The notes under the pieces were generated by a model. It was given only the letters and a program-made list of their open reading frames with translations, was not told the origin of the DNA and made no database searches. A stretch of 32,000 nucleotides of DNA from Candidatus Saccharimonadota bacterium (GTDB lineage: Bacteria; Patescibacteriota; Gracilibacteria; UBA1369; 2-02-FULL-48-14): NCBI GenBank assembly GCA_016699145.1, contig CP064962.1, positions 30,001-62,000 on the forward strand, written 5' to 3'. Positions 4,201 to 32,000 of the stretch are shown here, piece by piece. A program made the translations under genes and the position numbers. The number at the start of each line of letters is the position of its first letter. Position 1 is the stretch's first letter.

Positions 4201-5454
4201 ATGGAAACCAACACAGAATCAAACAGCAGCTTCGAACATTTAGGACTCCATCCCAAACTCCTCGACGCCCTTCAACGCCTCAAACTCAGCACTCCTACGC
4301 CGATTCAACATCAGGCTATTCCTGTGGCAACCGCCGGAAAAGACATGATAGGAATTGCGCAAACCGGTACGGGTAAAACCTTTGCATTTGGATTGCCCAT
4401 GTTGCAACGCTTGATGGGTGGCACTGGTTTTCAAGGATTGATCTTAGTTCCAACCCGTGAATTGGCCATTCAAGTGGAAGAAGGCCTTCTTAAAGTGGCC
4501 GGACATTTGGGACTGTGCACCGCTTTGCTCATTGGCGGAGCCCCCATTTTCAAACAAAAGCGTCAACTCAAAGCTCGGGTGAATGTTATTATTGCAACGC
4601 CTGGACGACTCATCGATCATCTCAAGCAAAAAAACTTAAATCTCGCCAAGGTGAGCATTTTGGTTTTGGACGAAGCGGATCGCATGCTCGACATGGGTTT
4701 TGAACCTCAAATTCGTGAAATTTTAAAACAAGTACCTCAAGAACGCCAAACCATGATGTTCTCGGCCACCATGCCCGCCAACCTCACACAAATGGCACAC
4801 TCTTACATGAAGAGCCCACTCCGCATTGAATTGGCCCCTGCGGGAACCGCTTCTGAGCAGGTGGAACAAGCTTTTCTAGTGCTTCCTAAAGAGGAGAAAA
4901 TCAAAGAACTCAGAGCTTTACTCACCACGTTTAAAGAGACTGTTTTAGTTTTCACTCGCACCAAGCACGGAGCCTCAAAGCTCACTCGCGCTTTGCAAGA
5001 CGCCGGATTCACAGCGGCTGAAATTCATTCCGACCGCACGCTCGGTCAAAGGAGAAAGGCCTTGGAGGGATTTAAAACAGGTTATTATCGAATTTTAGTG
5101 GCCACCGACATTGCCGCTCGTGGCATCGACGTGAAGGAAATTGGAATGGTGGTGAATTTCGACCTGCCTGAAAATGCAGAGGATTACGTGCATCGCATCG
5201 GACGCACGGGCCGAGCAGGCCACGAAGGGGTTGCACTTTCTTTTGCCACACCTGATCAACGCAAAGATCTAGAACTCATTCAACGCCTGATTCGAAAGGA
5301 ATTGGACGTGCATTTTAGAGTTCCCTTTGAAGCGCACGCTCCTCGTTCTCGTGGAGCTAAATTTCGACGCAATCCTCGAGGGGGTTATTCCGCCGGAACT
5401 TCATCTAGACCTTCTCGCTCTCGTGGAGCTTCCCATCATCGTCGCCGTCGCTAA
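4201..5454 (+). CDS. DEAD-box ATP-dependent RNA helicase with an Arg/Ser-rich C-terminal tail
   Basis: Q motif (F..LGL...L......TPIQ), AQTGTGKT, PTRELA, DEAD (VLDEADRMLDMGF), SAT, HRIGRTGRAG. I prefer the ATG at 4201 because the track TTG start at 4168 lies inside the -35 box. Confidence 0.9.
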   Translation: METNTESNSSFEHLGLHPKLLDALQRLKLSTPTPIQHQAIPVATAGKDMIGIAQTGTGKTFAFGLPMLQRLMGGTGFQGLILVPTRELAIQVEEGLLKVAGHLGLCTALLIGGAPIFKQKRQLKARVNVIIATPGRLIDHLKQKNLNLAKVSILVLDEADRMLDMGFEPQIREILKQVPQERQTMMFSATMPANLTQMAHSYMKSPLRIELAPAGTASEQVEQAFLVLPKEEKIKELRALLTTFKETVLVFTRTKHGASKLTRALQDAGFTAAEIHSDRTLGQRRKALEGFKTGYYRILVATDIAARGIDVKEIGMVVNFDLPENAEDYVHRIGRTGRAGHEGVALSFATPDQRKDLELIQRLIRKELDVHFRVPFEAHAPRSRGAKFRRNPRGGYSAGTSSRPSRSRGASHHRRRR

Positions 5455-5482
5455 AGCCAAAGAAAGGACGAGGACAATGCAT

Positions 5483-5510
5483 TTGACTCCGACTGACTTT
5501 ATGCTAAGAT
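5483..5510 (+). promoter_or_regulatory. candidate promoter for the FG-GAP gene
   Basis: TTGACT (5483-5488), 16-nt spacer, TAAGAT (5505-5510), 19 nt before the ATG at 5530. Confidence 0.4.
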
Positions 5511-5529
5511 TCAGTCTTTAACACCTCTT

Positions 5530-7026
5530 ATGCAAACTAAAAAACGCCTTTCATTCTTTGCTTTGGCCTTGAGTTTCGTTTTAGTCCTTCCGGTTCAAGC
5601 GGTTTCTTTGACCAGCACCTCAGAGGGTGGTTACGCCATTCAAGAATTTGTCGGAGAATGGACTTCTGATCTTGCTGGAGCCAGTGTGGCAGCTGCAGGG
5701 GACGTGGATGGTGATGGTTACGATGATTTTTTGGTAGGTGCTCCTCAAAATAGTGATGCCGCTACTAATGCAGGGGCTACTTATTTAGTGTATGGCCCTA
5801 TTTACCAAACGGCTAACGAAACTCGCATACCCAATTTTCCATTATTGGGTGGTAGCTCAATAGTTGCAGAATTCTCTGGTGAAGCGGAGTCGTCTTATTC
5901 AGGTTCATCCGTAGCGGGCGTAGGAGATGTCAATGCGGATGGATACGACGATTTTGTGATTGGCGCTTACGCTTACTCCTCCGGAGAAGAAACCTACGAA
6001 GGGGCAGCGTACCTTGTGTATGGGCAATCCACCCGTTATACCTCTGTTTCCTTAAGCTCTAGTTCTGTCGTTCGTTTTCTTGGGGAGGCTGAAAGTTCAG
6101 CTGGAACTTCAGTTTCGGCTGCTGGTGATGTGAACAACGATGGCTATGAAGATTTTCTTATTGGAGCCCCTTATTACAGCAATACCAATGGTTGGGTTGG
6201 AGCCACCTATTTGGTTTTAGGACGAAGTACGCGCTATCAAGATAGAACTTTAGGCAGTGCCAACTCTATTAAACGTTTTGTAGGAGCCACCACGGACAGC
6301 CTTTCAGGCACTTCGGTGGCTGGGGGTGACATTGATGCCGATGGATACAGTGATGTCATCATTGGAGCTCCAGCAGGTAGAGGTGCTGTTTATGTGGTGT
6401 ACGGAGGTGCCAGCATTGCTTCTCGTTCTTTATCTGCCACCTCTGTTTATAAATTTGTGGGTGAAAATACGGGAGATAACGCTGGAGATGAGATTGCTTT
6501 TGCGGGAGATGTGAATGGTGACGGTTATGGAGAAATTTTGGTGGGCGCTCCACTAAATAGCGATGGTGGTTTGAATCAGACGGGTGCGGTCTATTTAGTG
6601 TATGGAACTTCAAGGCAAAATGCCACTCGAGTGACAAGTTTGGGTTCAAGCTCCATTGTAGAGATTATGGGAGTTGACCTGCAAGAACGCCTTGGTGAAG
6701 GTGATTTGGCAGGGTTGGGTGATTTAAATGGAGACGGCTATGGGGAGATTTTGCTCGGTAGCCGTAGTGTAGACTCCTCTGTTGGAACCAATGCGGGTGC
6801 TGCCTATCTTTTATATGGTCAAAGCGCTGCTTTTAGCGCAATGGCCACCACAGACCCTCTTTTCACTGCTTTCAATGGTGAGCTTACGGGTGACCAAGCG
6901 GGATCCAGCGTCTCTTTTGGAGGAACTTTGATCAATAACGATCTTTGTTTCATCGTTGGAGCACTAGCTAATGACGACTCAGGCTATAGCAATGCCGGCG
7001 CGGCTTATGTAATTTGGGCGGAGTAA
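5530..7026 (+). CDS. secreted FG-GAP (integrin-alpha-like) repeat protein, about seven blades
   Basis: Signal peptide MQTKKRLSFFALALSFVLVLPVQA. Six clear repeats and one degenerate repeat of G-D-(V/I/L)-(D/N)-x-D-G-Y-x-(D/E)-(F/I/V)-(L/I/V)-(L/I/V)-G-A-P followed by GA.YLVYG. Confidence 0.85.
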   Translation: MQTKKRLSFFALALSFVLVLPVQAVSLTSTSEGGYAIQEFVGEWTSDLAGASVAAAGDVDGDGYDDFLVGAPQNSDAATNAGATYLVYGPIYQTANETRIPNFPLLGGSSIVAEFSGEAESSYSGSSVAGVGDVNADGYDDFVIGAYAYSSGEETYEGAAYLVYGQSTRYTSVSLSSSSVVRFLGEAESSAGTSVSAAGDVNNDGYEDFLIGAPYYSNTNGWVGATYLVLGRSTRYQDRTLGSANSIKRFVGATTDSLSGTSVAGGDIDADGYSDVIIGAPAGRGAVYVVYGGASIASRSLSATSVYKFVGENTGDNAGDEIAFAGDVNGDGYGEILVGAPLNSDGGLNQTGAVYLVYGTSRQNATRVTSLGSSSIVEIMGVDLQERLGEGDLAGLGDLNGDGYGEILLGSRSVDSSVGTNAGAAYLLYGQSAAFSAMATTDPLFTAFNGELTGDQAGSSVSFGGTLINNDLCFIVGALANDDSGYSNAGAAYVIWAE

Positions 7027-12364: not shown

Positions 12365-12384
12365 GGCTGGCCACTCGGGTCTAG
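12365..12384 (+). repeat. mosaic repeat family, copy A, L module plus CTAG core (split by IS5)
   Basis: GGCTGGCCACTCGGGTCTAG is identical to the copies at 20946, 23523 and 24804. Confidence 0.85.
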
Positions 12385-13225
12385 GAGCTGTTAACATAAA
12401 TAGAGGAGTGGTGTAGAGTGAAGTTACTCTAACCCTAACGCCATGTACCAGATGCTAACGGATGAACAGTTCAAACTGATCCAGCCTTATTTTCCAAAGC
12501 CCAGAAAGCCTGAAAAGATTCCACTGAAACGTTGCATGGATGCCATTTGTTATGTACTTAAAACAGGGTGCGCATGGAGACAAATGCCCTACGATTACAG
12601 AGAAAAAGAGAATGACTGGCACACGATTTATACAAGATACAAACGGTGGAGCGAATCTGGACTTTTTGGACAAATGCTTAGAGCACTTGAAGTAGCAGAT
12701 GTACTTCAAGTGCGAATAGCTTTCCTGGACAGTACAACAAATAGAGCGCACCACAGTGCAGCGGGAGCCATGAAAAAGGGGCCACAAGCGTTAGGCCGAA
12801 GTAGAGGTGGGTACACTACAAAAATTCACATGATTGCTGGAGATCCAGATCATGGGATGCACTTTGTTTTAACAGGTGGTGAAGTGAGCGATGTGAAAGT
12901 TGGAAAACAAATTTTGAGAGATTATTCGTTTCCAAAAACAGTAGATCATTTGGCTATGGACAAAGGTTATTCATGCTACAAAGTTCTGGAGCTGTGCAAA
13001 GAAAAAGGCATAACTCCAGTCGTTCCTCCAAAGGCAAAAATGAAATTTCCGTGGGAATACAACAAGAACATTTATGCCTACCGCAACGAGATTGAACGCC
13101 TATTTCACCGAATGAAAAATTACAGAAGAATTTCAACTCGCTATGACAAATTAGACCTGATGTATGCCTCCTTTATCTCCCTCTGCCTTGTGGCACTTTT
13201 ACTCAAAGTCTTATGTTAACAGCTC
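12385..13225 (+). mobile_element. intact IS5-family insertion sequence (841 bp)
   Basis: Perfect 15-bp terminal inverted repeats: GAGCTGTTAACATAA at 12385-12399 and its reverse complement at 13211-13225. A 4-bp CTAG direct repeat flanks the element (12381-12384 and 13226-13229). It holds a single DDE transposase ORF whose stop codon lies inside the right inverted repeat. Confidence 0.9.
12443..13219 (+). CDS. IS5-family DDE transposase
   Basis: LTDEQFKLIQPYFP.....R..........AICYVLKTGCAWRQMP.......W.T.Y.RY.RW...G is the N-terminal IS5 motif. FLDST, MDKGY and RNEIERLFHRMKNYRRISTRYDK match the DDE and YREK region. Confidence 0.9.
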   Translation: MYQMLTDEQFKLIQPYFPKPRKPEKIPLKRCMDAICYVLKTGCAWRQMPYDYREKENDWHTIYTRYKRWSESGLFGQMLRALEVADVLQVRIAFLDSTTNRAHHSAAGAMKKGPQALGRSRGGYTTKIHMIAGDPDHGMHFVLTGGEVSDVKVGKQILRDYSFPKTVDHLAMDKGYSCYKVLELCKEKGITPVVPPKAKMKFPWEYNKNIYAYRNEIERLFHRMKNYRRISTRYDKLDLMYASFISLCLVALLLKVLC

Positions 13226-13323
13226 CTAGTACCCTTTGGCCTGTTTCATTGTAGTGCCTCTTGTCGTGAGACACAATTGTGGTGTTTCAGGCTAAATGAG
13301 ACATTTGAGGCAGTATAAAAAGG
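13226..13323 (+). repeat. mosaic repeat family, copy A, core plus type-1 middle plus R module
   Basis: CTAGTACCCTTTGGCCTGTTTCATTGTAGTGCCTCTTGTCGTGAGACACAATTGTGGTGTTTCAGGCTAAATGAGACATTTGAGGCAGTATAAAAAGG aligns over its full length with 23539-23636 and 24820-24918. Confidence 0.85.
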
Positions 13324-13718: not shown

Positions 13719-14186
13719 ATGGGAAAAACCATTAAACTAATTGCGTCAATACTCCTCTGCGAAACGGCTGGAATTATAGGTGTTGGATTTACAACGTCAG
13801 CTATTCCAACTTGGTACGACGCCCTCAATAAACCCTCTTTTAATCCACCATCGTGGATATTTGGTCCGGTATGGACGGCGCTCTATTTCTTTATGGGTCT
13901 GTCTCTATTCTTAGTATGGATTAACCCTTCTAAGACAAAACAAAAAGCTTTCCTCTTCTTCTTTATCCAACTTTTACTGAATGCAATATGGTCTCCGGTT
14001 TTCTTTGGCTTGCGATCCACTTCCATGGGTTTGATCGTCATTATTTTTCTATGGATTTTCATCCTGCTAACACTAATCCACTTCTACAAGATATCTAAAC
14101 CCTCCGCTGCACTGCTAGCCCCATATTTTCTGTGGGTAAGTTTTGCAACCGTCCTCAATTTTTCAATATGGCAACTTAACTTATGA
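13719..14186 (+). CDS. tspO: TspO/MBR tryptophan-rich sensory protein
   Basis: WY..L.KPSFNPP.W.FGPVWT.LY..MG...W and the W-rich five-helix layout are typical of TspO. Confidence 0.9.
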   Translation: MGKTIKLIASILLCETAGIIGVGFTTSAIPTWYDALNKPSFNPPSWIFGPVWTALYFFMGLSLFLVWINPSKTKQKAFLFFFIQLLLNAIWSPVFFGLRSTSMGLIVIIFLWIFILLTLIHFYKISKPSAALLAPYFLWVSFATVLNFSIWQLNL

Positions 14187-14187
14187 G

Positions 14188-14201
14188 ATAGCCTCTAGTA
14201 C
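14188..14201 (+). repeat. mosaic repeat family, short core copy B'
   Basis: ATAGCCTCTAGTAC is identical to 15966-15979. It relates to the long L module by an internal deletion (ATGGC[TGGCCACTCGGG]TCTAGTAC). Confidence 0.6.
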
Positions 14202-14205
14202 AAGT

Positions 14206-14300
14206 AAATGGCAAAATACAAGAAGGGTATACCTATGAACTTGTTGAGCCAGAAGTAAAGAATTTTGATCCCGAATTCAAACCGGAACTTACTCCAAAGC
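14206..14300 (+). pseudogene. decayed 5' fragment of a paralogue of the 15485..15961 gene
   Basis: TTTTGATCCCGAATTCAAACCGGAACTTACTCCAAAG (14263-14299) matches 15531-15567 apart from two substitutions. Translation gives ..YTYELVEPEVKNFDPEFKPELTPK against MQKNYKYVLTEPVGKIFDPEFKPELTPK. The upstream ATG at 14208 is out of frame by one base. Confidence 0.6.
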
Positions 14301-14329
14301 TCACAATTAAATCCTTTAGCCGCGCCTCC

Positions 14330-14989
14330 ATGCCAAAAAAATTATTCTCTAATCATAAAAAAATGAATATACTCTGGATGATAGCCATCATCGCGGCTGC
14401 TCTCTTCTTGGTCTGGGTCGCCTTCGGTTACTTCGGAAGCCGCGTAGAAACACTCTCTTACACCGTTTTGAGCAGCGACAAAGAATATGAAATCAGAGAG
14501 CTGCCGGAGCACATCATTGCCGAAACCACGGTCAGCGGCAATTTTGACGACGCCAGCGGGGAGGCCTTTAACATTCTGGCCGGATATATTTTCGGGAACA
14601 ATGAAAAGAAACAATCCATAAGTATGACCAGTCCGGTGGTTGAAAATGAATACAAAAAGATCGCCATGACTGCCCCGGTTGTTGAACAAGATTCGGGGGC
14701 AAATCAAAAGATTTTTTCATTTGTCATGCCGGCCGAATACACAATGGAAACACTACCCGAGCCATTGGATAAAAGGATCACCATAAAAAAAGTGGAAAGT
14801 AAAAAAATAGCGGTTCTCACTTTCAGCGGTTTTTATTCTGAAAAGAAAATTAATGAAAAAAAACAACTGCTCAAACAATATCTGGATCGTGATGGCCTGG
14901 AATATTCCACCGTATCTTGGGCGGGTTATAATCCACCCTGGACTCCGCCTTTTATGCGCCGACTGGAGGTCTGGGCGGAGCTAAAATAA
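14330..14989 (+). CDS. SOUL/HBP-family heme-binding protein with an N-terminal membrane anchor
   Basis: YEIRELPEHIIAET...SGEAFNILAGYIFGNNEKKQSISMTSPV...MTAPV.. fits the SOUL family pattern, with an N-terminal TM helix. Confidence 0.8.
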   Translation: MPKKLFSNHKKMNILWMIAIIAAALFLVWVAFGYFGSRVETLSYTVLSSDKEYEIRELPEHIIAETTVSGNFDDASGEAFNILAGYIFGNNEKKQSISMTSPVVENEYKKIAMTAPVVEQDSGANQKIFSFVMPAEYTMETLPEPLDKRITIKKVESKKIAVLTFSGFYSEKKINEKKQLLKQYLDRDGLEYSTVSWAGYNPPWTPPFMRRLEVWAELK

Positions 14990-15451: not shown

Positions 15452-15484
15452 TATGCGAAAAAGATAGTCATTGTGAATGACAAG

Positions 15485-15961
15485 ATGCAAAAAAATTACA
15501 AATATGTTTTAACTGAGCCTGTCGGAAAAATTTTTGATCCCGAATTCAAGCCGGAACTTACTCCGAAACAAATGCTGGAACTTGGTGTTTTTGGAGGTAA
15601 ATATATGACCGATTGTCAAAATGAATTCCCCGCAGATTGGTTTGAAAAAGCAAAACTTTGCTCAACCCATCATGAAGCGAAATTAAATTACTTTGGAATA
15701 AATGCGTCACAAGCTCTTTCCGTTTGGCAGAAAAAAGGCTGGATTTATCCTTTAGATCCTCGCGGATGGTTCCAGTGGTATTGCCGTTATTACATGGGAC
15801 GACGCATTGAGGAGGAAGACCGAAGACAAATCAAAAGATGGAAAGCCATCCAAAGACACATCGCACAGGTACGAAAAAACTGCCTAAAAGGCGATTTAAA
15901 TTGCAGACCAAAACAACGACAAGCCATTTTGCATTGGGCTTATGATTCTAGAAAAATATAA
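15485..15961 (+). CDS. conserved hypothetical protein (DPRGWFQWYCRYYMGRR motif)
   Basis: The ATG at 15485 (MQKNYKY...) is preferred over the track GTG at 15473. The soluble protein has a distinctive W/R-rich motif. I cannot name the family. Confidence 0.7.
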   Translation: MQKNYKYVLTEPVGKIFDPEFKPELTPKQMLELGVFGGKYMTDCQNEFPADWFEKAKLCSTHHEAKLNYFGINASQALSVWQKKGWIYPLDPRGWFQWYCRYYMGRRIEEEDRRQIKRWKAIQRHIAQVRKNCLKGDLNCRPKQRQAILHWAYDSRKI

Positions 15962-15965
15962 ATGC

Positions 15966-16072
15966 ATAGCCTCTAGTACCATTGTAGACTTTCTTATCCT
16001 AGCGTTTCTTGTCATGAGTCACAACGGCGGCCTTTCAGGATAAATGAGACATTTGAGACAGTGTAAAAAGGG
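15966..16072 (+). repeat. mosaic repeat family, copy B (short core plus divergent middle plus R module)
   Basis: ATAGCCTCTAGTACC...ATTGTAG...TTTCAGGATAAATGAGACATTTGAGACAGTGTAAAAAGGG. The R module is near-identical to copies D and E. The 5' CTGTCTCA arm is missing. Confidence 0.8.
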
Positions 16073-19478: not shown

Positions 19479-20762
19479 ATGACATTGGATTTTACTCTGA
19501 TTGCGGCTTTGATAATCTTTGTGGCTACCTATGGCCTGATTATTTCTGAAAAAATTCACCGCACTGTTTTGGCTCTTTTTGGGGCCGTGCTCATGATTTT
19601 ATTGGGTATTATCAATCAAGAATTGGCTCTTGAATCAGTAGATTTTAACACCTTGGGTCTGCTTATAGGAATGATGGTGATTGTGGGAATCGCGAAGGAT
19701 TCAGGCATGTTTCAGTTTGTAGCCCTGTGGGCGGCTCGTTTAGCAAAAGGGAAGCCCATTTCCATTTTTCTTTTACTCGGTTTTATTACAGCACTTTTTT
19801 CGGCATTCTTGGATAACGTGACTACCGTTCTTTTGATGGTTCCTGTGACTTTTGTGGTTTGTAATAACCTAAAAGTCAATCCTATGCCTTTTTTAATTGG
19901 GACTATCCTCCTCTCGAACATTGGAGGAACTGCCACGCTTATTGGAGATCCGCCCAATATTTTAATCGGAAGTGCTGCTCAGATTCCCTTCAATGATTTT
20001 TTGATTCATCTTGGACCAGTGATTTTAATCGTAACCTTTGTTACTTTAGCCATGCTTTATGGAATTTATAGGAAAGAACTAGTTGCTACTAAAGAAGCTC
20101 AGCTGTCTATTCTGAGTTTTAATCCTAAAGACGCGATTTCTGACTATCCTCTTCTTTACAGGTCTCTTTTTGTACTGGCCTTAGTTCTGATTGGTTTTTT
20201 CACGCACTCCATGACGCACTTTGAGGGAGCTACAATCGCATTGGGAGGAGCAGCTTTATTATTGCTACTCACCTTGAATGATCCTGAACATCATTTAAGA
20301 GATGTGGAGTGGACCACCATTTTCTTCTTTTTGGGATTGTTTATTCTGGTAGGGGGTTTAGAGAAGGTTGGTGTCATCCATTTTTTGGCAGAAAAGTTAG
20401 TGGAGGTGACGGATGGACAGCAGGTTCCTCTCACCCTTTCTGTGCTGTGGGGTTCTGCTTTCTTTTCTGCCGCTATCGATAATATTCCCTTTGTAGCCAC
20501 AATGATCCCATTGATTCAAAGTATTGGGGAATTTTCTCCCGGAGTGGACGTGATGCCTCTTTGGTGGGCCCTTGCTTTAGGGGCGGATATTGGCGGAAAT
20601 GCAACTCTGGTGGGAGCTTCTGCGAATGTGGTGGTGAGTGGGCTTGCTGGTAAACATGGTCATCGCATTGGTTTCTTTCAGTATATGAAAATCGCCGTTC
20701 CTTTAACCCTGGTTGCGTTGCTTATTTGTACGGTTTATATTTATCTTCGTTATTTGATGTAA
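19479..20762 (+). CDS. ArsB/NhaD-superfamily permease
   Basis: 427-aa polytopic protein. SAFLDNVTTVLLMVP....N.GG.ATLIGDPPN and ..SA.IDNIPF......GA..GGN.TL.GASAN are typical of the ArsB/NhaD (P-protein-like) family. Confidence 0.8.
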   Translation: MTLDFTLIAALIIFVATYGLIISEKIHRTVLALFGAVLMILLGIINQELALESVDFNTLGLLIGMMVIVGIAKDSGMFQFVALWAARLAKGKPISIFLLLGFITALFSAFLDNVTTVLLMVPVTFVVCNNLKVNPMPFLIGTILLSNIGGTATLIGDPPNILIGSAAQIPFNDFLIHLGPVILIVTFVTLAMLYGIYRKELVATKEAQLSILSFNPKDAISDYPLLYRSLFVLALVLIGFFTHSMTHFEGATIALGGAALLLLLTLNDPEHHLRDVEWTTIFFFLGLFILVGGLEKVGVIHFLAEKLVEVTDGQQVPLTLSVLWGSAFFSAAIDNIPFVATMIPLIQSIGEFSPGVDVMPLWWALALGADIGGNATLVGASANVVVSGLAGKHGHRIGFFQYMKIAVPLTLVALLICTVYIYLRYLM

Positions 20763-20844
20763 GCTTTTCTTTTGCAGATTTCTCCTAATGCCACTGCGCC
20801 TCAGGGGAACGGGAATTGAACCCTTTGCTGGACTTCCAAGGAAA

Positions 20845-20872
20845 GATCATCCTTAAACAGGGGTGATCTTTT
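20845..20872 (+). terminator. candidate intrinsic terminator downstream of the permease
   Basis: GATCATCC (20845-52) pairs with GGGTGATC (20861-68), including one G.T pair. The loop is 8 nt and TTTT follows. Confidence 0.5.
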
Positions 20873-20905
20873 ACTTCGTACAACGAAAATTCGAGTATCT
20901 ATCGC

Positions 20906-20967
20906 CATAGCTACTCGGGTCATAGGCTTTCAAACTGCCCGTAATGGCTGGCCACTCGGGTCTAGTA
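20906..20967 (+). repeat. mosaic repeat family, copy G (partial core plus extended L module plus core)
   Basis: CATAGCTACTCGGGTCAT then AGGCTTTCAAACTGCCCGTAATGGCTGGCCACTCGGGTCTAGTA. The extended L module aligns with 23506-23544 and 24783-24825. Confidence 0.8.
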
Positions 20968-21513
20968 TCCAAGCAAATGGGTGACAAGAATTTTTATCCC
21001 TAGAAAGATCAAGATGATTCCTCCAAGCTTTTCTGCATAAGAGGAAAGCGTTTTTTGGAATACTCGACTCAAACAAAGTCCTAAGAAAGACATCAAAAGC
21101 GTGACCACACCAATCATCAAAATACTACTCATAAAGTCGAGGTCAAGAGCATGAAATCCAACTCCTACAACCAAGGCATCAATGCTGGTTGCTAAGGCCA
21201 ATACTCCGATTGTTCCAAAAGAGAGAGGCCCTGACTTTTCTTCAATTTCATGCTCTTTTTTAAGATCAAATATCATATTTACTCCCAAGCCGCTTAGAAC
21301 AAAAAAGGCAATCCAATGGTCCACAGGCGCAATCCATCCTTCAAAGGGCATTCCCAGAAGATAGCCAAAGGCAGGCATCACCATTTGAAAAACAGCAAAA
21401 CTGATCGCAGCAAAAAAAAGCTTTGGGAAGGATCTATATTTGGAGCTTAAAGCTATTGAAGCAGCACAAGCATCCATGCTGAGGCCAAGGGCAGTGAGGA
21501 AAACAACATTCAT
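20962..21513 (-). CDS. mntP: manganese efflux pump MntP (DUF204 family)
   Basis: MNVVFLTALGLSMDACAASIALS... and a second half with ...ALATSIDALVVG... give the two-repeat MntP architecture. The stop codon is the TAG of the repeat core. Confidence 0.85.
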   Translation of the reverse strand: MNVVFLTALGLSMDACAASIALSSKYRSFPKLFFAAISFAVFQMVMPAFGYLLGMPFEGWIAPVDHWIAFFVLSGLGVNMIFDLKKEHEIEEKSGPLSFGTIGVLALATSIDALVVGVGFHALDLDFMSSILMIGVVTLLMSFLGLCLSRVFQKTLSSYAEKLGGIILIFLGIKILVTHLLGY

Positions 21514-21537
21514 AATGGAATTAAACCTAAATAAAAA

Positions 21538-21683
21538 ACTCGGGTCTAGTAATAGGAGCTATTCCCAGAGACTCCATAAGGAGTAAACCCAGCAAAGTTC
21601 TCCGCATGCACACCCAAGCTGGCATTGCGGGGAGACACAATTGTGGCACTTCGGGCTAAATGGGACGTTTGTCTCGTACAAGG
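21538..21683 (+). repeat. mosaic repeat family, copy C (core plus type-2 middle (M2) plus variant R module)
   Basis: ACTCGGGTCTAGTA, then ATAGGAGCTATTCCCAGAGAC, then M2 (TCCATAAGGAGTAAACCCAGCAAAGTTCTCCGCATGCACACCCAAGCTGGCATTGCGG), then GGAGACACAATTGTGGCACTTCGGGCTAAATGGGACGTTTGTCTCGTACAAGG. Confidence 0.8.
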
Positions 21684-21772
21684 ACTTGCTAATGCTCCTT
21701 CACATCTATTCCATCCAAAGAGAATGTCCTGCTAGAATGCCAACGTTTTTTCTCAAACCCATCCCACGAAAA

Positions 21773-23521
21773 ATGATGGCATTTCTAAACTCAGATAAAC
21801 TTGCCCCCGCTCTAGTTATTCTTGGGTACTTTTTAGTCATAGGTCTCATAGGTGCCTACAGTCACCGCTTTTTAAAAAAAACCGCGGAAGATTATTTTTT
21901 GGGAGGAAGGGCCACCAAAACTTTGGTACTGCTCTTCACCATGGCGGCCACTAATTTTAGCGCCGTCACCATTTATGGATTTTCTGGAACGGCCTACCGC
22001 CAAGGTTATAGTTTTTTCCCCATCATGGCCTTTGGAACGGGTTTCATGGCACTCACCTTTTATTTTATCGGTAGACGCGTATGGGAACTGGGAAAAGAAA
22101 AAGGCTACATGACCCCCCCTCAGCTCATGGGAGATGAGATGAAGAGCCCTTGGCTCCGCCGTTTAGTTTTTTTGGTGATGCTTGTGTTCTCTCTCCCCTA
22201 TATCGCTATTCAGCCCATCGCCGGAGGGTACACCCTAGAAGCGCTCTTGGGCATTCCCTATTTTTTGGGAGCAAGCTTAGTAACGGGTATGATTCTTCTT
22301 TATACATTTTGGGGAGGATATCGCTCCGTTGCGTGGACCGATGTGGCACAAGGCATAATTATGCTCACGGTTATGCTGCTTACCGTGTGGGGCATCGCGG
22401 AAGCAGAGGGGGGGGTTGTGGCAGCCAACACAGCGGTATTTGAAAAAATGCCGGAGCTTTTTTCCCGTCCCGGTGCCGGTGAAGTTTATACTCCGGCGCT
22501 ATGGTTCAGTTACATGATTCTTTGGTTTTTTTGTGACCCTCTATTCCCACAACTGTTCCAACGATTCTTTGTGGCTAAAGAAAAAAAAGCTTTGAACCGA
22601 ACGATGATTTGGTACCCCCTCGTGACTGGCGTTTTCTTTTTACTACCCATGGTGATAGGAGTTTTAGGTCACTTGAGCATCCCCGGCCTAGAGGGCAAAG
22701 AAGCCGATAGAATTTTCCCGATGCTCGCAGAGCTGCATTTTTCTCCGGTCACTGCGGCCTTTATTGTAACAGCAGGTCTCGCAGCACTCATGTCCACTAT
22801 GGATTCACAAATGCTCACCCTCAGCTCCATGTTCACTAAAGATGTTTATGAACCACTCACCGGTCGGCCAGTGAAGGGCAATGGTGTGGGTCGAGCTTTT
22901 AGTGTGCTTTTAGCTGGCCTGGGTTTGCTCATTGCCTACTTCAACCCGAGCTCAATCCTGCAGATAACAACAGAAACCTTCACAGGGCTTGCAGTTCTCT
23001 TCCCAGCCTTAGTGGCCATTTTATATTGGCCACGTACCCATGCTGGGGCTGCTTGCACTTCGATATTGATGGGAGAACTCTTGGTTATTTTGTACCATTT
23101 CAAACTCTTACCAACGGGCGGCTTTTTATCAGTTATTCCCATCTTAGGATGCACCACAGTGATTTTGGTCTTGGGAAGTTACCTTGGGAAGGCAAAACCT
23201 CGTACCCTACCCAAAGTGCCTAAGTCCACTTGGATTTGGGGCATGCTTTTTTACAGGGATTTTTGCTTTATCCTTAGATTTTTGGAATTGGAGTCAGACT
23301 CCTACTTTATGGGGGGGCTTGCCTCTATGGGTGTGGGCTACTTTAGCCTTAAATGGGATCACCGCATTGGCTTTTTGGGTCTTGAGTTCAAGGAAGCAAA
23401 TCAAAGAAAACTAACACCTTTTCTCAGGATTGAAAGTATCTTTATAGGATACTCGTTGACTTTTGGAAAGTTTAAAAATTCCCACATGGATCGTTCAATG
23501 GGAAATACAAACTGCACGTGA
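21773..23521 (+). CDS. sodium:solute symporter (SSS) family transporter with an aberrant 3' end (probable frameshift at 23247-23252)
   Basis: The ATG at 21773 (MMAFLNSDKLAPALVILGYFLVIGLIGAYSHRFLKKTAEDYFLGGR) gives a typical SSS N-terminus. After about aa 492 the sequence stops looking like a membrane protein and runs into the repeat L module. The track start at 21641 lies inside repeat copy C. Confidence 0.75.
   Translation: MMAFLNSDKLAPALVILGYFLVIGLIGAYSHRFLKKTAEDYFLGGRATKTLVLLFTMAATNFSAVTIYGFSGTAYRQGYSFFPIMAFGTGFMALTFYFIGRRVWELGKEKGYMTPPQLMGDEMKSPWLRRLVFLVMLVFSLPYIAIQPIAGGYTLEALLGIPYFLGASLVTGMILLYTFWGGYRSVAWTDVAQGIIMLTVMLLTVWGIAEAEGGVVAANTAVFEKMPELFSRPGAGEVYTPALWFSYMILWFFCDPLFPQLFQRFFVAKEKKALNRTMIWYPLVTGVFFLLPMVIGVLGHLSIPGLEGKEADRIFPMLAELHFSPVTAAFIVTAGLAALMSTMDSQMLTLSSMFTKDVYEPLTGRPVKGNGVGRAFSVLLAGLGLLIAYFNPSSILQITTETFTGLAVLFPALVAILYWPRTHAGAACTSILMGELLVILYHFKLLPTGGFLSVIPILGCTTVILVLGSYLGKAKPRTLPKVPKSTWIWGMLFYRDFCFILRFLELESDSYFMGGLASMGVGYFSLKWDHRIGFLGLEFKEANQRKLTPFLRIESIFIGYSLTFGKFKNSHMDRSMGNTNCT
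23184..23414 (+). CDS. two-helix hydrophobic segment in the +1 frame, probably the true C-terminus of the SSS transporter
   Basis: ..FTGIFALSLDFWNWSQTPTLWGGLPLWVWATLALNGITALAFWVLSSRKQIKEN* is membrane-like. It joins smoothly to ...STWIWGMLF if one T is removed from the T6 run. Confidence 0.4.
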   Translation: MGRQNLVPYPKCLSPLGFGACFFTGIFALSLDFWNWSQTPTLWGGLPLWVWATLALNGITALAFWVLSSRKQIKEN

Positions 23522-23636
23522 TGGCTGGCCACTCGGGTCTAGTACCCTTTTGACCTGTCTCATTGTAGTGTCTCTTGCCGTGAGACACAACTATGGCGTT
23601 TCAGGATAAATGAGACACTTGAGACAGTATAAAAAA
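23506..23636 (+). repeat. mosaic repeat family, copy D (complete type-1 unit)
   Basis: ACAAACTGCACGTGATGGCTGGCCACTCGGGTCTAGTACCCTTTTGACCTGTCTCATTGTAGTGTCTCTTGCCGTGAGACACAACTATGGCGTTTCAGGATAAATGAGACACTTGAGACAGTATAAAAAAG. Confidence 0.85.
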
Positions 23637-23637
23637 G

Positions 23638-24303
23638 CTAGGAAGAACGAGCCGCCCACCGAACTTTGGTAGGTCTAAATCCTTGTCGCTCATAAAAATG
23701 CAGAGCAGACTCGTTCCCCACAGCAGCGCTGGTCCAAAATCGCCCCACTTGCCGTTCAGCAGCCCAGGTTTCAGCAGACTTCAAAAGACTTTTTCCATAG
23801 CCCTTGCCGCGAACTTTTTCGAGCACCATGAGTTCCAAAAGATAAGCCGAGCCATCGTCCTCCAGTTCCACCACGCTGAACCCCAGCAACTCTCCAGCCT
23901 CAAACACCCCATAAGCCGCCGCCGTCCCGTCTTGAAGTTTTTCATCGATCTCTACAAGGTAAGCATCGATTTCAAAAACCGCCGGATCAGCAAAATACTC
24001 AGTATCCAATTGATAGTGAAAAGCTTGCTGTTCAAAAAGCAAATCTTTGAACTGACGAACATCAGACAAAGGAACTATCTCCGGACTGACAACATGGACT
24101 TGAGGAATTTTCTCAATAAAAAGAAGCCGCTTTCGAAAGCCAGCGGGAGCTTCCACCTCTAGCGGTAAGTCGATTTGAATCCATTGTTTGGAAGCTGCAG
24201 GGACAGTAAAATCCGACCCAATTTTTTGTGACAAATCCAAGTACAAATAATCCGAAAAACTCAGATCGGTGACGAAGATGTGAACAGTCTCAAAAGGATG
24301 CAT
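23638..24303 (-). CDS. GNAT-family N-acetyltransferase with an N-terminal domain of unknown function
   Basis: The C-terminal half ...LLELMVLEKVRGKGYGKSLLKSAETWAAE......ESALHFYERQGF contains the GNAT acetyl-CoA motif A (R/Q-x-x-G-x-G/A). Confidence 0.8.
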   Translation of the reverse strand: MHPFETVHIFVTDLSFSDYLYLDLSQKIGSDFTVPAASKQWIQIDLPLEVEAPAGFRKRLLFIEKIPQVHVVSPEIVPLSDVRQFKDLLFEQQAFHYQLDTEYFADPAVFEIDAYLVEIDEKLQDGTAAAYGVFEAGELLGFSVVELEDDGSAYLLELMVLEKVRGKGYGKSLLKSAETWAAERQVGRFWTSAAVGNESALHFYERQGFRPTKVRWAARSS

Positions 24304-24406
24304 GCATCCACTTTATTCTTTTAGCAAAGAGTGGTAAACTCCTAACCTGTTAATAACAGACTATGCCAGAAAGACCAAATAGATATGATCGCCACATGAA
24401 TAAAAA

Positions 24407-24619
24407 AGCTTTGGCAGCAAAAAAAACTTCTCCAGGTAGGCCTTCTTCCTGCAAAACACTTCTGAATTCACCAATATTCTCTGCAATTTGCTCAGGGAAA
24501 ACCACATGAAACGGTGTCCCAATAGATCGGGCAAGAGTGGCAAGAGTGGCGCGTTCATTGAGAAGATCAGAAACATTCCTTGATTGCAGTGCTGGGAAAC
24601 GGCCTGGAGAATCACTCAT
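24407..24619 (-). pseudogene. N-terminal fragment (~71 aa) of a type III PLP-dependent (Orn/DAP/Arg-type) decarboxylase
   Basis: ...LARSIGTPFHVVFPEQIAENIGEFRSVL.....GEVFFAAKA matches the family N-terminus (GTP.yV.....i..n...f........yA.KAN). It breaks off before the PLP-lysine context is complete. The remaining track ORF down to 24350 is read-through junk. Confidence 0.6.
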
Positions 24620-24698
24620 ACCAGTTTGATCAAAATGGGGATTATTTTATGTTTTCTTTACAGATAAAACAAGAGGTTATTTCAGTTCGAAGAACAGA

Positions 24699-24918
24699 TT
24701 GACACTGCGGTACTAGCACTTCATAAGGAGTAAAACCAGCGAAGGCTCCGCATGCACGTCCAAACCAGCCTTGCGGATCACAAGGCTTTGTCATGCAACT
24801 GATGGCTGGCCACTCGGGTCTAGTACCCTTGGGACTGTCTCATTTTACCTATTCTTGCCGTGAGACACAATTGTGGCGTTTCAGGCTAAATGAGACATTT
24901 GAGACAGTATAAAAAGGG
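24699..24918 (+). repeat. mosaic repeat family, tandem copies E1 (degenerate L plus M2) and E2 (complete type-1 unit)
   Basis: E1 is TTGACACTGCGGTACTAG, then CACT, then M2 (24721-24776). E2 runs from 24783: AGGCTTTGTCATGCAACTGATGGCTGGCCACTCGGGTCTAGTACCCTTGGGACTGTCTCA...GAGACACAATTGTGGCGTTTCAGGCTAAATGAGACATTTGAGACAGTATAAAAAGGG. Confidence 0.85.
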
Positions 24919-24937
24919 CGACTCAAATTTGTTTTAT

Positions 24938-24980
24938 TTGACAGTTCATAGTATAACCACTAACCTAGGTAGTAGGTTAT
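24938..24980 (+). promoter_or_regulatory. candidate csoR-copA promoter with an overlapping palindromic operator
   Basis: TTGACA (24938-43), 17-nt spacer, TAACCT (24961-66). The imperfect palindrome ATAACCACTAACCTAGGTAGTAGGTTAT (24953-24980) has outer ATAACC/GGTTAT arms and an inner ACCTAGGT. Confidence 0.4.
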
Positions 24981-24996
24981 TTAACAAATCTTATTT

Positions 24997-25272
24997 ATGA
25001 TGGACCCCTACAAAACCAAAGCAGAGCTTGGTACTAAGAAAGCTCTTGGTCAGCTCAAGAAAGTCCTTGAAATGATTGAACAGGAAGCCTACTGCATGGA
25101 TATTTTGCAGCAAGTGAGTGCCGTGGAGGGACTACTCGCCTCCGTCTCTTCCCTCGCCTTAGACAGTCACCTCCACACCTGCGGAAAGCGAGCCTTCTCT
25201 AGTTCAAATGAAAAAGAACAGGAGAAAATCATTCAAGAACTCCTTTTAGCATTTAAGAAATCAAAAAAGTAA
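24997..25272 (+). CDS. csoR: CsoR/RcnR-family metal-sensing transcriptional repressor
   Basis: The small four-helix protein carries the C-H-C ligand pattern (..[10 protein letters not shown]....H.HTC..). It lies directly upstream of copA. Confidence 0.85.
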
Positions 25273-29624: not shown

Positions 29625-30096
29625 ATGCGAGGCATATTTTCTTTTTACAAGAAGCCCTCTGTTGTTTTTCTGACCTTAGCTTTGGGTGTTTTGCTTTCCT
29701 CTCTCTATGCGTACTTTCTTGACACACTTCCAGGCAGTGATCCGAATGGTCTCGCATGCATGGAGGGAGGAAACCTTACGCCTTTCAACTTAATATACGG
29801 GGCCATTCTAAGTTTCCTCGTGAGTGTCTTCGTGGTTGTTTCCCTCTTTTCCTACAAACGAAAAAGAAAAGGAAGCCTCTTGAGTGGTTCTGCCTTCAGT
29901 CTTTCTGCAATGCTCGCATTTTTGAGTGCATTCTGTACCCTTTGCGTATTTCCAAGCCTCGCTTTTTTTGGGGCTTGGGGTCAGTTTGAGCTTTCTTACA
30001 TCGTACGGAGGCGTACTGAAGATATTAAGCATTCTTTTTATTCTAGCTGCCCTTTATTTGATGGATCGAAGACTCCGTATCGCTTGCGACTGTTAA
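29625..30096 (+). CDS. membrane protein with an intramembrane CxxC and a C-terminal CDC, needing a frame correction at T7 (29963-29969)
   Basis: Frame 0 gives hydrophobic sequence up to ...SAFCTLCVFPSLAF. The track ORF then runs 150 nt antisense into uppP as polar junk. Frame +1 gives LGLGVSLSFLTSYGGVLKILSILFILAALYLMDRRLRIACDC*, ending at 30096. Confidence 0.5.
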
Positions 30097-30869
30097 AACC
30101 CAAGGTAGAGGAGCACAAAGAAAAGACACGCTATGCCTATCCTATAGAACCCAAAGGCACTGAAGGTTTGCTTCCGCAGCGTAGCGAGCAGGAACTTGAT
30201 GCTCACGAGTGCCATGAGGAAGGAAGTGAAGAACCCCACGCTTAGCAGCGCGATTTGGTCGGATGTGAAACTTTGAGCGTTTTTATAAAGATCCAAGGTG
30301 GTGGCTGCAAGCATTGTGGGCACGGCTAACAGGAAGGAAAATTCAACGATGGTTTTCTTTTGTAGACCAAGGAGTAAACCACCTACGATGGTAGCGGCTG
30401 ATCGAGAAACTCCTGGGATCATGGCTACCGACTGGAAAAGACCTAGGAGGATGCAAGTTTTGTAGGGAATCGAAGATAGTTCTTGGGTTTCTGTACTTTT
30501 CTCCCTATGAGTTCTCTCAAAGATGATCAAAAGTAGTCCTCCAACGAGCAGTGCCCACAGCATTACGTTGAAGTCCTCGAGAAGATACTGCTTGACCAGT
30601 TTATAAAATAGCAAGCCTAAGATTCCTGTAGGCAGAAAAGCCAACAGTAGGCGGTTGATAACCTCCCACTTGAGAAGGCTCTGCCAGTAGAGAAAGACCA
30701 CCGCTAAGATAGCTCCTAATTGAATGATGATCTCAAAACTTTTCAAATACTCACTTTGATCGAGTCCGAGCAATTTGCCCGTAAGAGCGAGATGCGCGGT
30801 TGAAGATATGGGAAGAAACTCTGTAAAGCCTTCAACCAATCCTAAAATGAGTGCGTGCAGTAAATTCAT
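30093..30869 (-). CDS. uppP: undecaprenyl-diphosphate phosphatase
   Basis: MNLLHALILGLVEGFTEFLPISSTAHL... and ...PGVSRSAATI.GGL are canonical UppP/BacA motifs. Confidence 0.9.
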   Translation of the reverse strand: MNLLHALILGLVEGFTEFLPISSTAHLALTGKLLGLDQSEYLKSFEIIIQLGAILAVVFLYWQSLLKWEVINRLLLAFLPTGILGLLFYKLVKQYLLEDFNVMLWALLVGGLLLIIFERTHREKSTETQELSSIPYKTCILLGLFQSVAMIPGVSRSAATIVGGLLLGLQKKTIVEFSFLLAVPTMLAATTLDLYKNAQSFTSDQIALLSVGFFTSFLMALVSIKFLLATLRKQTFSAFGFYRIGIACLFFVLLYLGF

Positions 30870-30872
30870 AGT

Positions 30873-31481
30873 TTAGCAGTCACACATTTTTTCTTCCTTC
30901 AGCGTGGTATACCCCTCCTTGAAGGTCAGACCGGTGAAGAAAATGCCTGCAAAAGCATCTGCCCACCATAGCTCAAAGAAGTAATTCAGTCCCAGACCCA
31001 CAAAAAGTGCAACGGACATCATGGTACAGATGAAGGTCTGCTGTGAATCTGCAACAAGACTTTTACTGTTGAGTAGCTTTCCAACCTTTCGTTTGGAGTG
31101 GGCTAGCCACGGCATGATGATCAAAGACAAAACCGCAATTACAATTCCAACCGCACTCGGCTCTGGACCCTCCCCAAGGTAAAGGTCTCTCAAAGATTCA
31201 AAGAGGATATAAGCCCCCAAAAGGAAGAAGCTGTACCCAACGAGCTTTGCTGCCTTCTTCTCGATCTTCTCTTCCTCTACTTCACTCACCGTCCGCTGGG
31301 TAAATCTCCAAATCATGACACTGCCTGAAAGAGATTCAATGAAGCTGTCTGCACCAAAGCCTATCAAGGCAATGCTTCCCGTCCCGATGCCCAAGGCAAT
31401 AGAAATAATACCCTCCACGACGTTATAAATGACCGTGAAGTACGAAAGGAACCGAGCTTTTCTTTGCAAAAGGTGTTTCAT
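30873..31481 (-). CDS. cation-efflux-like membrane protein (transmembrane domain only) with a C-terminal CDC
   Basis: Six hydrophobic helices. The first two helices carry ..NVVEG..SI..G..TGSIALIGFGADSFIES.., which resembles the CDF metal-site region. It ends ...EEKMCDC*. Confidence 0.55.
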   Translation of the reverse strand: MKHLLQRKARFLSYFTVIYNVVEGIISIALGIGTGSIALIGFGADSFIESLSGSVMIWRFTQRTVSEVEEEKIEKKAAKLVGYSFFLLGAYILFESLRDLYLGEGPEPSAVGIVIAVLSLIIMPWLAHSKRKVGKLLNSKSLVADSQQTFICTMMSVALFVGLGLNYFFELWWADAFAGIFFTGLTFKEGYTTLKEEKMCDC

Positions 31482-31482
31482 A

Positions 31483-32000
31483 TCAACATTTTTCTAGGTT
31501 ACATTCTTCCTTGCCCCTTTCAAGCTCCAGCGTGGCATGAGGGATGCCATAAGATTGGAGGAGTAATTGTTTGGCGTCGCACTTAACTTCAAACACACGC
31601 TCTTCAGAAAGAGCATTTTCCACTATGAGATGGCTGGTTAGAACGCTTTCCTCTCCATCCAAAGACCATACATGAGAATCGTGTACAGTCAAAACACCCT
31701 TAATACCGAGCAGACTCTTTTCAATCTCTTTGATTTTCAGGTTATCTGGCACTCCTTGCAGGAAAACTTTTACCACGCTTTTGAGGTTCTTTAAAACTTT
31801 AGAAAGGACAAACAACGTGATTAAAATGGAAAGAATTGGATCAAGAATGTGGGTGTCTTGAATGCTCATAACGATGCTAGTCACCAACACCGCTACCCAG
31901 CCCAAAACATCCTCCATCATATGCCATGTAAGAACCTTTTCGGTGAGTCCCTTACCTGACCTTAATCGAAGAGCAGTGAGACCATTGAGCAGTATTCCAA
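31483..32000 (-). CDS. cation diffusion facilitator (CzcD/ZitB-like), 5' end outside the window
   Basis: The reading frame stays open to the window edge (..GILLNGLTALRLRSGKGLTEKVLTWHMMEDVLGWVAVLV..), corresponding to the CDF TM5 H-x3-D region. The C-terminal cytoplasmic domain contains ..VHDSHVWSL.... Confidence 0.8.
   Translation of the reverse strand, partial: GILLNGLTALRLRSGKGLTEKVLTWHMMEDVLGWVAVLVTSIVMSIQDTHILDPILSILITLFVLSKVLKNLKSVVKVFLQGVPDNLKIKEIEKSLLGIKGVLTVHDSHVWSLDGEESVLTSHLIVENALSEERVFEVKCDAKQLLLQSYGIPHATLELERGKEECNLEKC

Follow-up and report, generated by a model that had tools for sequence, protein, structure and literature searches.

The 14-bp repeats on either side of mntP in a Candidatus Saccharimonadota contig are cores of a modular repeat family

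The window analyzed here is a stretch of 32,000 nucleotides from contig CP064962.1 of a Candidatus Saccharimonadota bacterium (positions 30,001 to 62,000; assembly GCA_016699145.1). It carries the manganese exporter gene mntP between two copies of the 14-mer ACTCGGGTCTAGTA. A preliminary description had read this arrangement as the trace of a circular single-gene cassette inserted into the 14-mer, and its descriptive part was borne out. The two 14-mers are exact and their flanks differ on both sides; ACTC...GTA is bounded by cc and tcc in the left copy and by aa and ata in the right copy. The 570 bp separating them hold mntP on the minus strand as the sole gene, plus a 24-nt leader. The stop codon TAG of mntP comes from the left copy (reverse complement of 20962-20964). 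The encoded protein is 65-81% identical to its homologues. The segment lacks inverted repeats, as had been claimed: the best end-to-end inverted match scores 7, which is the level of shuffled sequence. A yybP-ykoY manganese riboswitch (covariance model RF00080) was absent from both strands of 20700-25100 in Rfam searches at E <= 1.

The 14-mer is not a two-copy repeat private to mntP. At two or fewer mismatches it occurs five times in the window against a mean of 0.08 in shuffled sequences, which rules out a chance origin. Further copies are found at 23531 and 24812 (exact) and at 12373 (one mismatch). It recurs beyond mntP because it is the core of a multi-copy repeat family. Repeat finding, pairwise BLAST and profile hidden Markov models (nhmmer) defined three modules in this family: L+core of about 27 nt (GGCTGGCCACTCGGGTCTAGTACCCTT), mid+R of about 83 nt, and type-2, which is about 155 nt long in its native form. 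A full unit measures about 125 nt. The profile search gave 11 module matches in the window, all on the plus strand (Table 1).

The two copies flanking mntP belong to different modules. The left one is part of a solo L+core, preceded by an extended-L segment (...GGGTCATAGGCTTTCAAACTGCCCGTAAT) that likewise precedes L+core in loci L015, L017 and L023 and at L004:7357 (L numbers denote loci outside the window). The right one lies in a type-2 copy that lacks the native left arm ATGCCACTCC..CTACCTT, the loss ending precisely at the core. Unit D lies within a block common to the window and L006 (23521-24423, 88% identity). The composite unit E consists of the 3' half of type-2 (24711-24809), L+core (24804-24831) and mid+R (24832-24914).

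Table 1. Features of the mntP locus, repeat units of the window and native type-2 copies elsewhere
Feature	Position	Strand	Basis and remarks
Left 14-mer copy ACTCGGGTCTAGTA	20954-20967	+	Direct sequence read, repeat search
Right 14-mer copy ACTCGGGTCTAGTA	21538-21551	+	13/14 bases, CTCGGGTCTAGTA, native to type-2 element
mntP, manganese efflux pump (manganese exporter), 183 aa, seemingly intact	20962-21513	-	Pfam PF02659 (Mntp), 2.3e-42, profile positions 6-152 of 152
24-nt A/T-rich leader, mntP start codon to right core	21514-21537	-	No counterpart in relatives
Extended-L segment upstream of L+core	20912-20945	+	Direct sequence; degenerate core ACTCGGGTCATAGG at 20912-20925
Solo L+core GGCTGGCCACTCGGGTCTAGTAtCC	20946-20972	+	nhmmer match 20946-20969; overlaps last codon and stop of mntP
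Truncated type-2	21538-21631	+	nhmmer E = 2e-28; model positions 31-122 of about 155 nt
Partial R module	21625-21671	+	mid+R model positions 24-70; fused to type-2 where TTGCGG meets GGAGACAC; about 105 nt upstream of SSF start
SSF sodium:solute symporter, next gene module	21776-23414	+	Pfam SSF; DNA homology to orthologues 21786-23386
Unit D, intact (L+core + mid + R)	23523-23634	+	Repeat and profile search; exact 14-mer at 23531
Composite unit E	24711-24914	+	Profile search; exact 14-mer at 24812
Unit A, split at core CTAG by the 841-bp insertion sequence	12365-13320	+	Repeat pair, ends of the insertion sequence
IS4/IS5-type insertion sequence, 841 bp, DUF4096 and DDE_Tnp_1 transposase domains	12385-13225		Perfect 15-bp inverted repeats GAGCTGTTAACATAA, CTAG target duplication
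Unit B, mid+R without L	15974-16068	+	Homology to other units begins at about TCTAGTACC
Native type-2, L005	1325-1479
Native type-2, L025	9582-9735
Native type-2, L026	8178-8332
Native type-2, L008	2227-2381

The mid+R module has four TGAGACA copies, one inverted and three direct, at fixed spacing, and looks like a multi-site protein-binding region. Its middle part occurs in two subtypes that recur across species (…TTGTAGTGTCTC… and …CTTACCTATTC…; 23554-23634 and 24832-24914 in the window). None of the modules matched Rfam, whether gathering thresholds or a cutoff of E <= 1 was applied. Known RNA families (the manganese riboswitch and tRNA-like models among them) were thus rejected as candidates, only true tRNAs being matched, and the relaxed Rfam search gave no support to a full tRNA pseudogene as the origin of the whole unit. 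Consensus scans for sigma-70-like promoters and intrinsic terminators scored nothing inside the modules. The dyad of L+core is only 4 bp and fold z-scores are about -1.4 to -3.3. The modules are predicted to fold weakly to moderately, and no compensatory changes accompany the variation of the middle section.

The right-hand 14-mer is found in its native setting in other genomes. A metagenome scan for GGGTCTAGTAATAGGRGCTATT, together with the genome loci, gave four independent type-2 copies outside the window (L005, L025, L026 and L008; the L008 sequence is the same as in L027, L028 and L032 and was counted once). All four follow the consensus ATGCCA(C/G)TCC...CTACCT(TC/CT)(TC/AC)GGGTCTAGTAATAGG...CCGCATGCAC...GGATCACAAGG.TTTGTCATGCAA, and all four possess the left arm ATGCCACTCC..CTACCT. 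In three of them (L005, L025 and L026) the element has the form ATGCCACTCC..CTACCTTCTCGGGTCTAGTAATAGG...GCAACTnnTGGCTGG and runs straight into the reverse complement of tRNA-Gln (TGGCTGGGGCGG...); in L008 its form is degenerate. The sequence of the right copy is present in the type-2 of L005 and L025 as CTCGGGTCTAGTAATAGG. Because CTCGGGTCTAGTA, 13 of the 14 bases, is native to type-2 wherever that element is present, the duplication was probably not made by an insertion. A direct repeat arising de novo from one target copy was also rejected, since both copies are native to separately conserved modules.

The empty site that the preliminary description called for, L joined directly to ATAGGAGCTATT, was not found. 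None of the approximately 42 L+cores precedes a type-2, and no type-2 is preceded by L. The check comprised a metagenome scan for every type-2 junction and all loci, and it recovered only the native copies at the flank of tRNA-Gln; in this comparison set, which is without strain-level relatives, the closest MntP and SSF homologues are 81% identical. Native type-2 is a conserved non-coding element of about 155 nt directly downstream of tRNA-Gln in several Peribacteria; it belongs to no Rfam family and has several hairpins (e.g. GCCTTGCGGATCACAAGGC). In one stem, two changes compatible with G-U pairs, seen by eye, fit pairing on the strand antisense to the tRNA. The four sequences showed no covariation indicative of a conserved RNA structure.

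The left junction has a counterpart in another genome. In L009, an mntP encoding a protein with 65% identity has its 3' end overlapping a variant of L+core, GGCTGGCTAGTTGGGTCCACTACCC. From GTAATGGCTGG through the gene end the DNA of L009 and the window aligns without gaps, within a homologous block that corresponds to 20941-21503. In the aligned register the gene ends as TTT GGG TAG in L009 and as CTT GGA TAC TAG in the window; the window mntP is therefore one codon longer and stops at the core CTAG. A core is missing 5' of mntP in L009. Since the junction between L+core and mntP is also present in L009, it is orthologous, inherited and old. The native type-2 setting of the right copy and the orthology of the left junction speak against the earlier interpretation of the 14-bp duplication as a scar of mntP insertion.

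Closer relatives of the gene lack the repeats altogether. L001-L003, whose MntP proteins are 77-81% identical, have no core or module near mntP. In the relatives mntP adjoins homologues of window genes, NaCaEx in L001 (83% identity) and TspO and orf97 in L003. The first feature of L003 is a tRNA-Gln 3' end that has the orientation of mntP and lies 2.1 kb upstream of it. On the side of the leader, DNA homology to L001, L002, L003 and L009 stops at 21503-21517. The GC content of mntP is 0.411, that of NaCaEx, CBS and CitMHS on its left is 0.405-0.42, and that of SSF and GNAT on its right is 0.47. A recently acquired foreign mntP was therefore rejected, there being no compositional anomaly and a GC content that matches the left block. 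Composition and the neighbours in relatives suggest that mntP is a long-term local resident. Transposon- or insertion sequence (IS)-style insertion was also rejected, as the segment has no terminal inverted repeats, no transposase and no gene other than mntP. The orthologues of SSF (80-81% identity) lie in a VKOR-DoxX-Ldh-SSF operon without repeats; an empty allele joining CitMHS to SSF is thus not expected in relatives.

The family is spread over many genomes of one lineage. The L+core 20-mer GGCTGGCCACTCGGGTCTAG was found, exact, in 21 stretches from about 14-19 Peribacteria/Peregrinibacteria assemblies (species-representative genomes); all 21 stretches are of Peribacteria/Peregrinibacteria type, or are short contigs probably mis-binned to other taxa. 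Profile searches gave about 42 L+core, 22 mid+R and 8 type-2 matches, in one orientation per source in every case (e.g. n = 7 in L004, n = 7 in L008, n = 5 in L022). About half of the exact L+cores are followed by mid+R, and about half by unrelated sequence directly past TACCCTT. On the complete chromosome OZ246396.1 (1,306,353 bp), exact copies occur only at 880-888, 904-912 and 920-928 kb, on one strand. The repeat-bearing region there measures about 48 kb, and the fetched stretch adds just two module clusters between the exact copies. This region holds homologues of the window genes for DUF1428, methyltransferase, DsbA, CDF and BacA, and is therefore syntenic with the window. Many repeat loci lie at contig ends or on short contigs, as expected of a strain-variable region. 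Four short contigs with Peribacteria-type repeats and genes (L007, L009, L021 and L023) are binned to Gammaproteobacteria, Pseudobdellovibrionaceae and Bdellovibrionales; such odd binning is probably mis-binning of a strain-variable, assembly-breaking region. A literature search found nothing like this Peribacteria repeat family, and a Peribacteria genome paper mentions nothing like it (PMC4736985).

The cores partition the arrays into small gene segments. L004 has seven cores in 7.5 kb with 1-3 genes per interval, including single-gene segments between co-oriented cores at 4638-5390 and 5395-5752. Segments delimited by cores carry 1-3 accessory genes, for ion and metal homeostasis and for toxin-antitoxin functions. 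The modules are tightly placed with respect to the genes. A minus-strand gene ends at -11 to +58 nt on the right of 17 of 22 solo L+cores, and at least four genes stop on the core TAG (mntP of the window, L004:4638, L010:998 and one in L018). In 21 of 33 cases L+core precedes the next start codon on the minus strand by 10-80 nt. Downstream of mid+R, a plus-strand gene starts after 51-117 nt in 12 of 16 cases. These genes are diverse (CsoR twice, ArsR, CDF, an antitoxin, HAD and small basic proteins), so that mid+R looks like a generic upstream region rather than the operator of one regulon.

The arrays are linked to tRNA-Gln. The tRNA gene is present in 7 of the 21 genome loci, where it runs antiparallel to the repeats and keeps to one side of them in every case, and also in L025, L026 and L003. 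The reverse complement of L+core, GGGTACTAGACCCGAGTGGCCAGCCA, is as long as the 3'-terminal 26 nt of tRNA-Gln, GGGTTCGAATCCCTCACCCCCAGCCA, and matches them at 16-17 of 26 positions. At least 16 matches to the 3' end of tRNA-Gln were obtained in 11 of 100,000 shuffles, and tRNA-Leu gives 13. At about 60% identity, L+core is similar to the tRNA end and not an exact duplicate. In the alignment, TCTAGTA of L+core, with GGG and CCC on its two sides, takes the position of the T-loop. In both unit E and L008, L+core follows ...GCAACTnn-TGGCTGG exactly at the native position of tRNA-Gln, and the identical composite stands beside BacA in L008 and L032. In L008 a native type-2 is followed by a 16-nt exact fragment of the tRNA-Gln 3' end, broken inside the T-loop. 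Tyrosine integrases that target tRNA genes usually work on a 7-nt overlap between short inverted core sites within the T-loop. The core is plausible as a crossover site because several homology breakpoints fall at the edges of TCTAGTA: that of unit B, the divergence of type-1 and type-2 after CTAGTA, and the tRNA fragment of L008.

One IS is also associated with the core. In addition to the IS that splits unit A, a related IS end, GTGCTGTTAACATAT, is found at the identical L+core position in another species (L004:7377). The tetranucleotide CTAG is under-represented in the window (58 observed, about 122 expected). The IS targets either the conserved core site or CTAG itself. A phage or integrative-element origin of the family was rejected, with 0 matches on viral contigs.

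Taken together, the two 14-mers probably represent the core that two distinct family members, each conserved independently, have in common, and not a duplication produced by the arrival of mntP; this reading includes att-like shuffling. L+core would descend from the tRNA-Gln 3' end, comprising T-arm, acceptor strand and CCA, and TCTAGTA would stand for the T-loop. The module would serve as an att-like site, and recombination among core-bearing sites, either site-specific through some recombinase or via short homology, would shuffle the gene modules. Recombination at the core could have given the present order of L+core, mntP and truncated type-2, and mid+R is probably a portable upstream or promoter region for the gene on its right. 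That the core is the joining point of modules, with single genes as the units, is plausible in the light of the arrays of other species, the anchoring at tRNA-Gln and the T-loop homology.

Several points weigh against this reading. First, both ends of the mntP segment lie within 0-1 nt of the core edges, deletion of the segment plus one copy leaves a seamless core, as core recombination predicts, and the native left arm of type-2 is absent precisely up to the core. Second, L+core is perfectly conserved whereas the flanking orthologous genes are 65-88% identical, which fits a cis-acting expression element as well as a recombination site. Third, no recombinase or integrase was found among the window proteins (Pfam) apart from the IS transposase, no integrase among the families matched by at least two of 130 neighbouring open reading frames (ORFs), and no recombinase among 10 genes beside tRNA-Gln (Pfam) or in L032. 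Fourth, the window has no tRNA-Gln within its 32 kb; its only tRNA is a tRNA-Leu at 775-863. The comparison covers fragments of other genomes plus this window.

The modules could instead be cis-acting expression elements under selection, rearranged by ordinary homologous recombination, an explanation we regard as considerably less likely. The reverse complement of L+core would then act behind minus-strand genes as a 3'-end or intercistronic signal, in RNA or DNA, and mid+R would provide a promoter or 5' region that is portable. The tight placement of both modules with respect to stop and start codons, the diversity of the downstream genes and the complete conservation of L+core at orthologous positions despite divergence of the genes are all in line with such a role. 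However, the modules have no promoter or terminator score and no Rfam match, and they fold weakly to moderately with no compensatory changes. Signals of this kind would also leave unexplained the anchoring at tRNA-Gln, the truncated tRNA-Gln fragment, the confinement to a single region and the mosaic junctions at the core.

Insertion of a circular cassette of mntP with a single core into the core of an intact unit (L + type-2 + R), as the preliminary description proposed, is unlikely. The exact flanking repeats, the one-gene segment and the stop codon completed by the core recommended this scheme. The single-gene segments between co-oriented cores in L004 agree with it, as does the alignment of the core with the tRNA T-loop, the classic crossover position for tyrosine integrases. 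A site-specific system would, moreover, also recreate the junction of L+core and mntP seen in L009. But a unit joining L to type-2 is absent among five independent type-2 copies and about 42 L+cores. The right copy has a sequence native to type-2, the left junction of L009 comes without a right-hand core, and the closer mntP relatives (77-81%) have no core at all. Composition and neighbours suggest a long residence of mntP, and no recombinase was found. What survives of the cassette picture, with its crossover inside the 14-mer, is the modular repeat, the single-gene segments and the breakpoints at TCTAGTA; with no recombinase or empty site found, module exchange at the core is a plausible inference.

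Non-autonomous mobile repeats, similar to miniature inverted-repeat transposable elements (MITEs) or to the repetitive extragenic palindromes (REPs) and bacterial interspersed mosaic elements (BIMEs), with mntP merely caught between two of them, are highly improbable: the mosaic of short intergenic modules with high similarity across species and the IS in the same CTAG in two species would suit them, but the units have no terminal inverted repeats or target duplications, their orientation is strictly uniform, exact copies are confined to one region of the complete genome and copies occupy orthologous positions in different species.

Comparison with known systems shows partial likeness to three of them. 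Tandem integrative elements and islets of tRNA genes, whose att sites serve tyrosine integrases aiming at the T-loop or 3' end of the tRNA, share with the Peribacteria arrays the anchoring at a tRNA gene, here tRNA-Gln, with consistent polarity. The Peribacteria site is similar to the 3' end of the tRNA and has a 7-nt loop equivalent enclosed by a small dyad (GGG..CCC). Further likenesses are the truncated tRNA-Gln 3' fragment in one array, the unit E junction with both arms and the variable accessory cargo. Unlike those elements, the Peribacteria arrays have no nearby integrase in the searched loci, their modules are 0.4-3 kb and often single-gene, the site shares only about 60% identity with the tRNA end and the window array has no tRNA-Gln within 32 kb.

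Integrons and clusters of attC sites lacking integron integrases (CALINs) offer a second comparison. As in these, the Peribacteria repeats are co-oriented and bound accessory segments of 1-3 genes, with stops in or next to the repeat and with toxin-antitoxin pairs in opposite orientation (L004). They occupy one chromosomal region, a few percent of a small genome, and the full unit, about 125 nt long, is reminiscent of attC families specific to a species, among them the Vibrio cholerae repeats. An attC site has R''/L''-L'/R' boxes in an imperfect hairpin of at least about 55 nt. In contrast, direct reading of the Peribacteria units showed no attC boxes (RYYYAAC/GTTRRRY), and the solo site is 27 nt. 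IntI, attI and Pc were not found, gene orientation is mixed, and the repeats keep their sequence across species, not structure alone. The REP and BIME elements of enterobacteria are likewise short intergenic modules in varied orders, mostly at gene ends, and are targeted by IS. The Peribacteria repeats differ from them in that exact copies are confined (880-928 kb of 1.306 Mb), orientation is uniform, the modules are weakly palindromic and tRNA-Gln is linked to them.

A number of side observations concern the neighbouring genes. The long SSF ORF (annotated 582 aa; 543-544 aa in relatives) continues in another frame into the L module of unit D (23184-23521). Its last 60 or so codons match relatives only in a shifted frame, and the homologous C-terminus lies in the ORF 23184-23414. 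This apparent 3' frameshift represents an incipient pseudogene, a sequencing error or an ORF extended by the repeat. CDF homology is split over two adjacent minus-strand ORFs in different frames, 31483-31920 (ZT_dimer) and 30873-31481 (membrane domain); the two-piece pattern recurs in L022 and may reflect either a conserved frameshift or two separate genes. The source genome has, on the same contig, a second paralogue of BacA/UppP (P0246) that is 81% identical to the window gene at 30093-30869. In L007, L008 and L022, BacA-CDF modules adjoin repeat units; these observations hint at a duplicated module or at a second locus that bears repeats.

Paralogous unannotated ORFs (about 14186-14330 and 15473-15961) are marked by 95-nt segments at 14204-14298 and 15473-15567 with 74% identity; both segments lie in one inter-repeat segment, beside the TspO and SOUL genes. 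Along the window, GC skew goes from weakly positive (1.5-9 kb) through values close to zero (9-22 kb) to weakly negative (21-31.5 kb), and its cumulative curve peaks over the repeat array. A Ter-like role or replication polarity was considered and rejected, the change of skew sign being too weak in 32 kb to call proximity to a terminus.

Bacteria of the candidate phyla radiation (CPR) have very small genomes and, to our knowledge, little has been reported on how they gain or reshuffle accessory functions. In many Peribacteria species, conserved, co-oriented junctions linked to tRNA-Gln partition genes for ion and metal homeostasis and toxin-antitoxin genes. The repeat also affects annotation, as it extends ORFs, supplies stop codons, breaks assemblies and leads to mis-binning of contigs. 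A speculative model, to which we give a small chance, is that Peribacteria (CPR, genomes of about 1.3 Mb) have an integron-like platform that occupies one chromosomal region and is anchored at tRNA-Gln. Modules would be captured and shuffled at a 27-nt site that mimics the T-arm and acceptor end of tRNA-Gln, with crossover in TCTAGTA and a recombinase encoded elsewhere, and mntP would be one of the cassettes. The modules of such a platform may be small and either promoter-less or promoter-carrying. If the sites are recombination targets, they would constitute a cassette-exchange system with a type of site other than attC. If they are expression signals, they would be a lineage-specific and unusually conserved element of gene punctuation.

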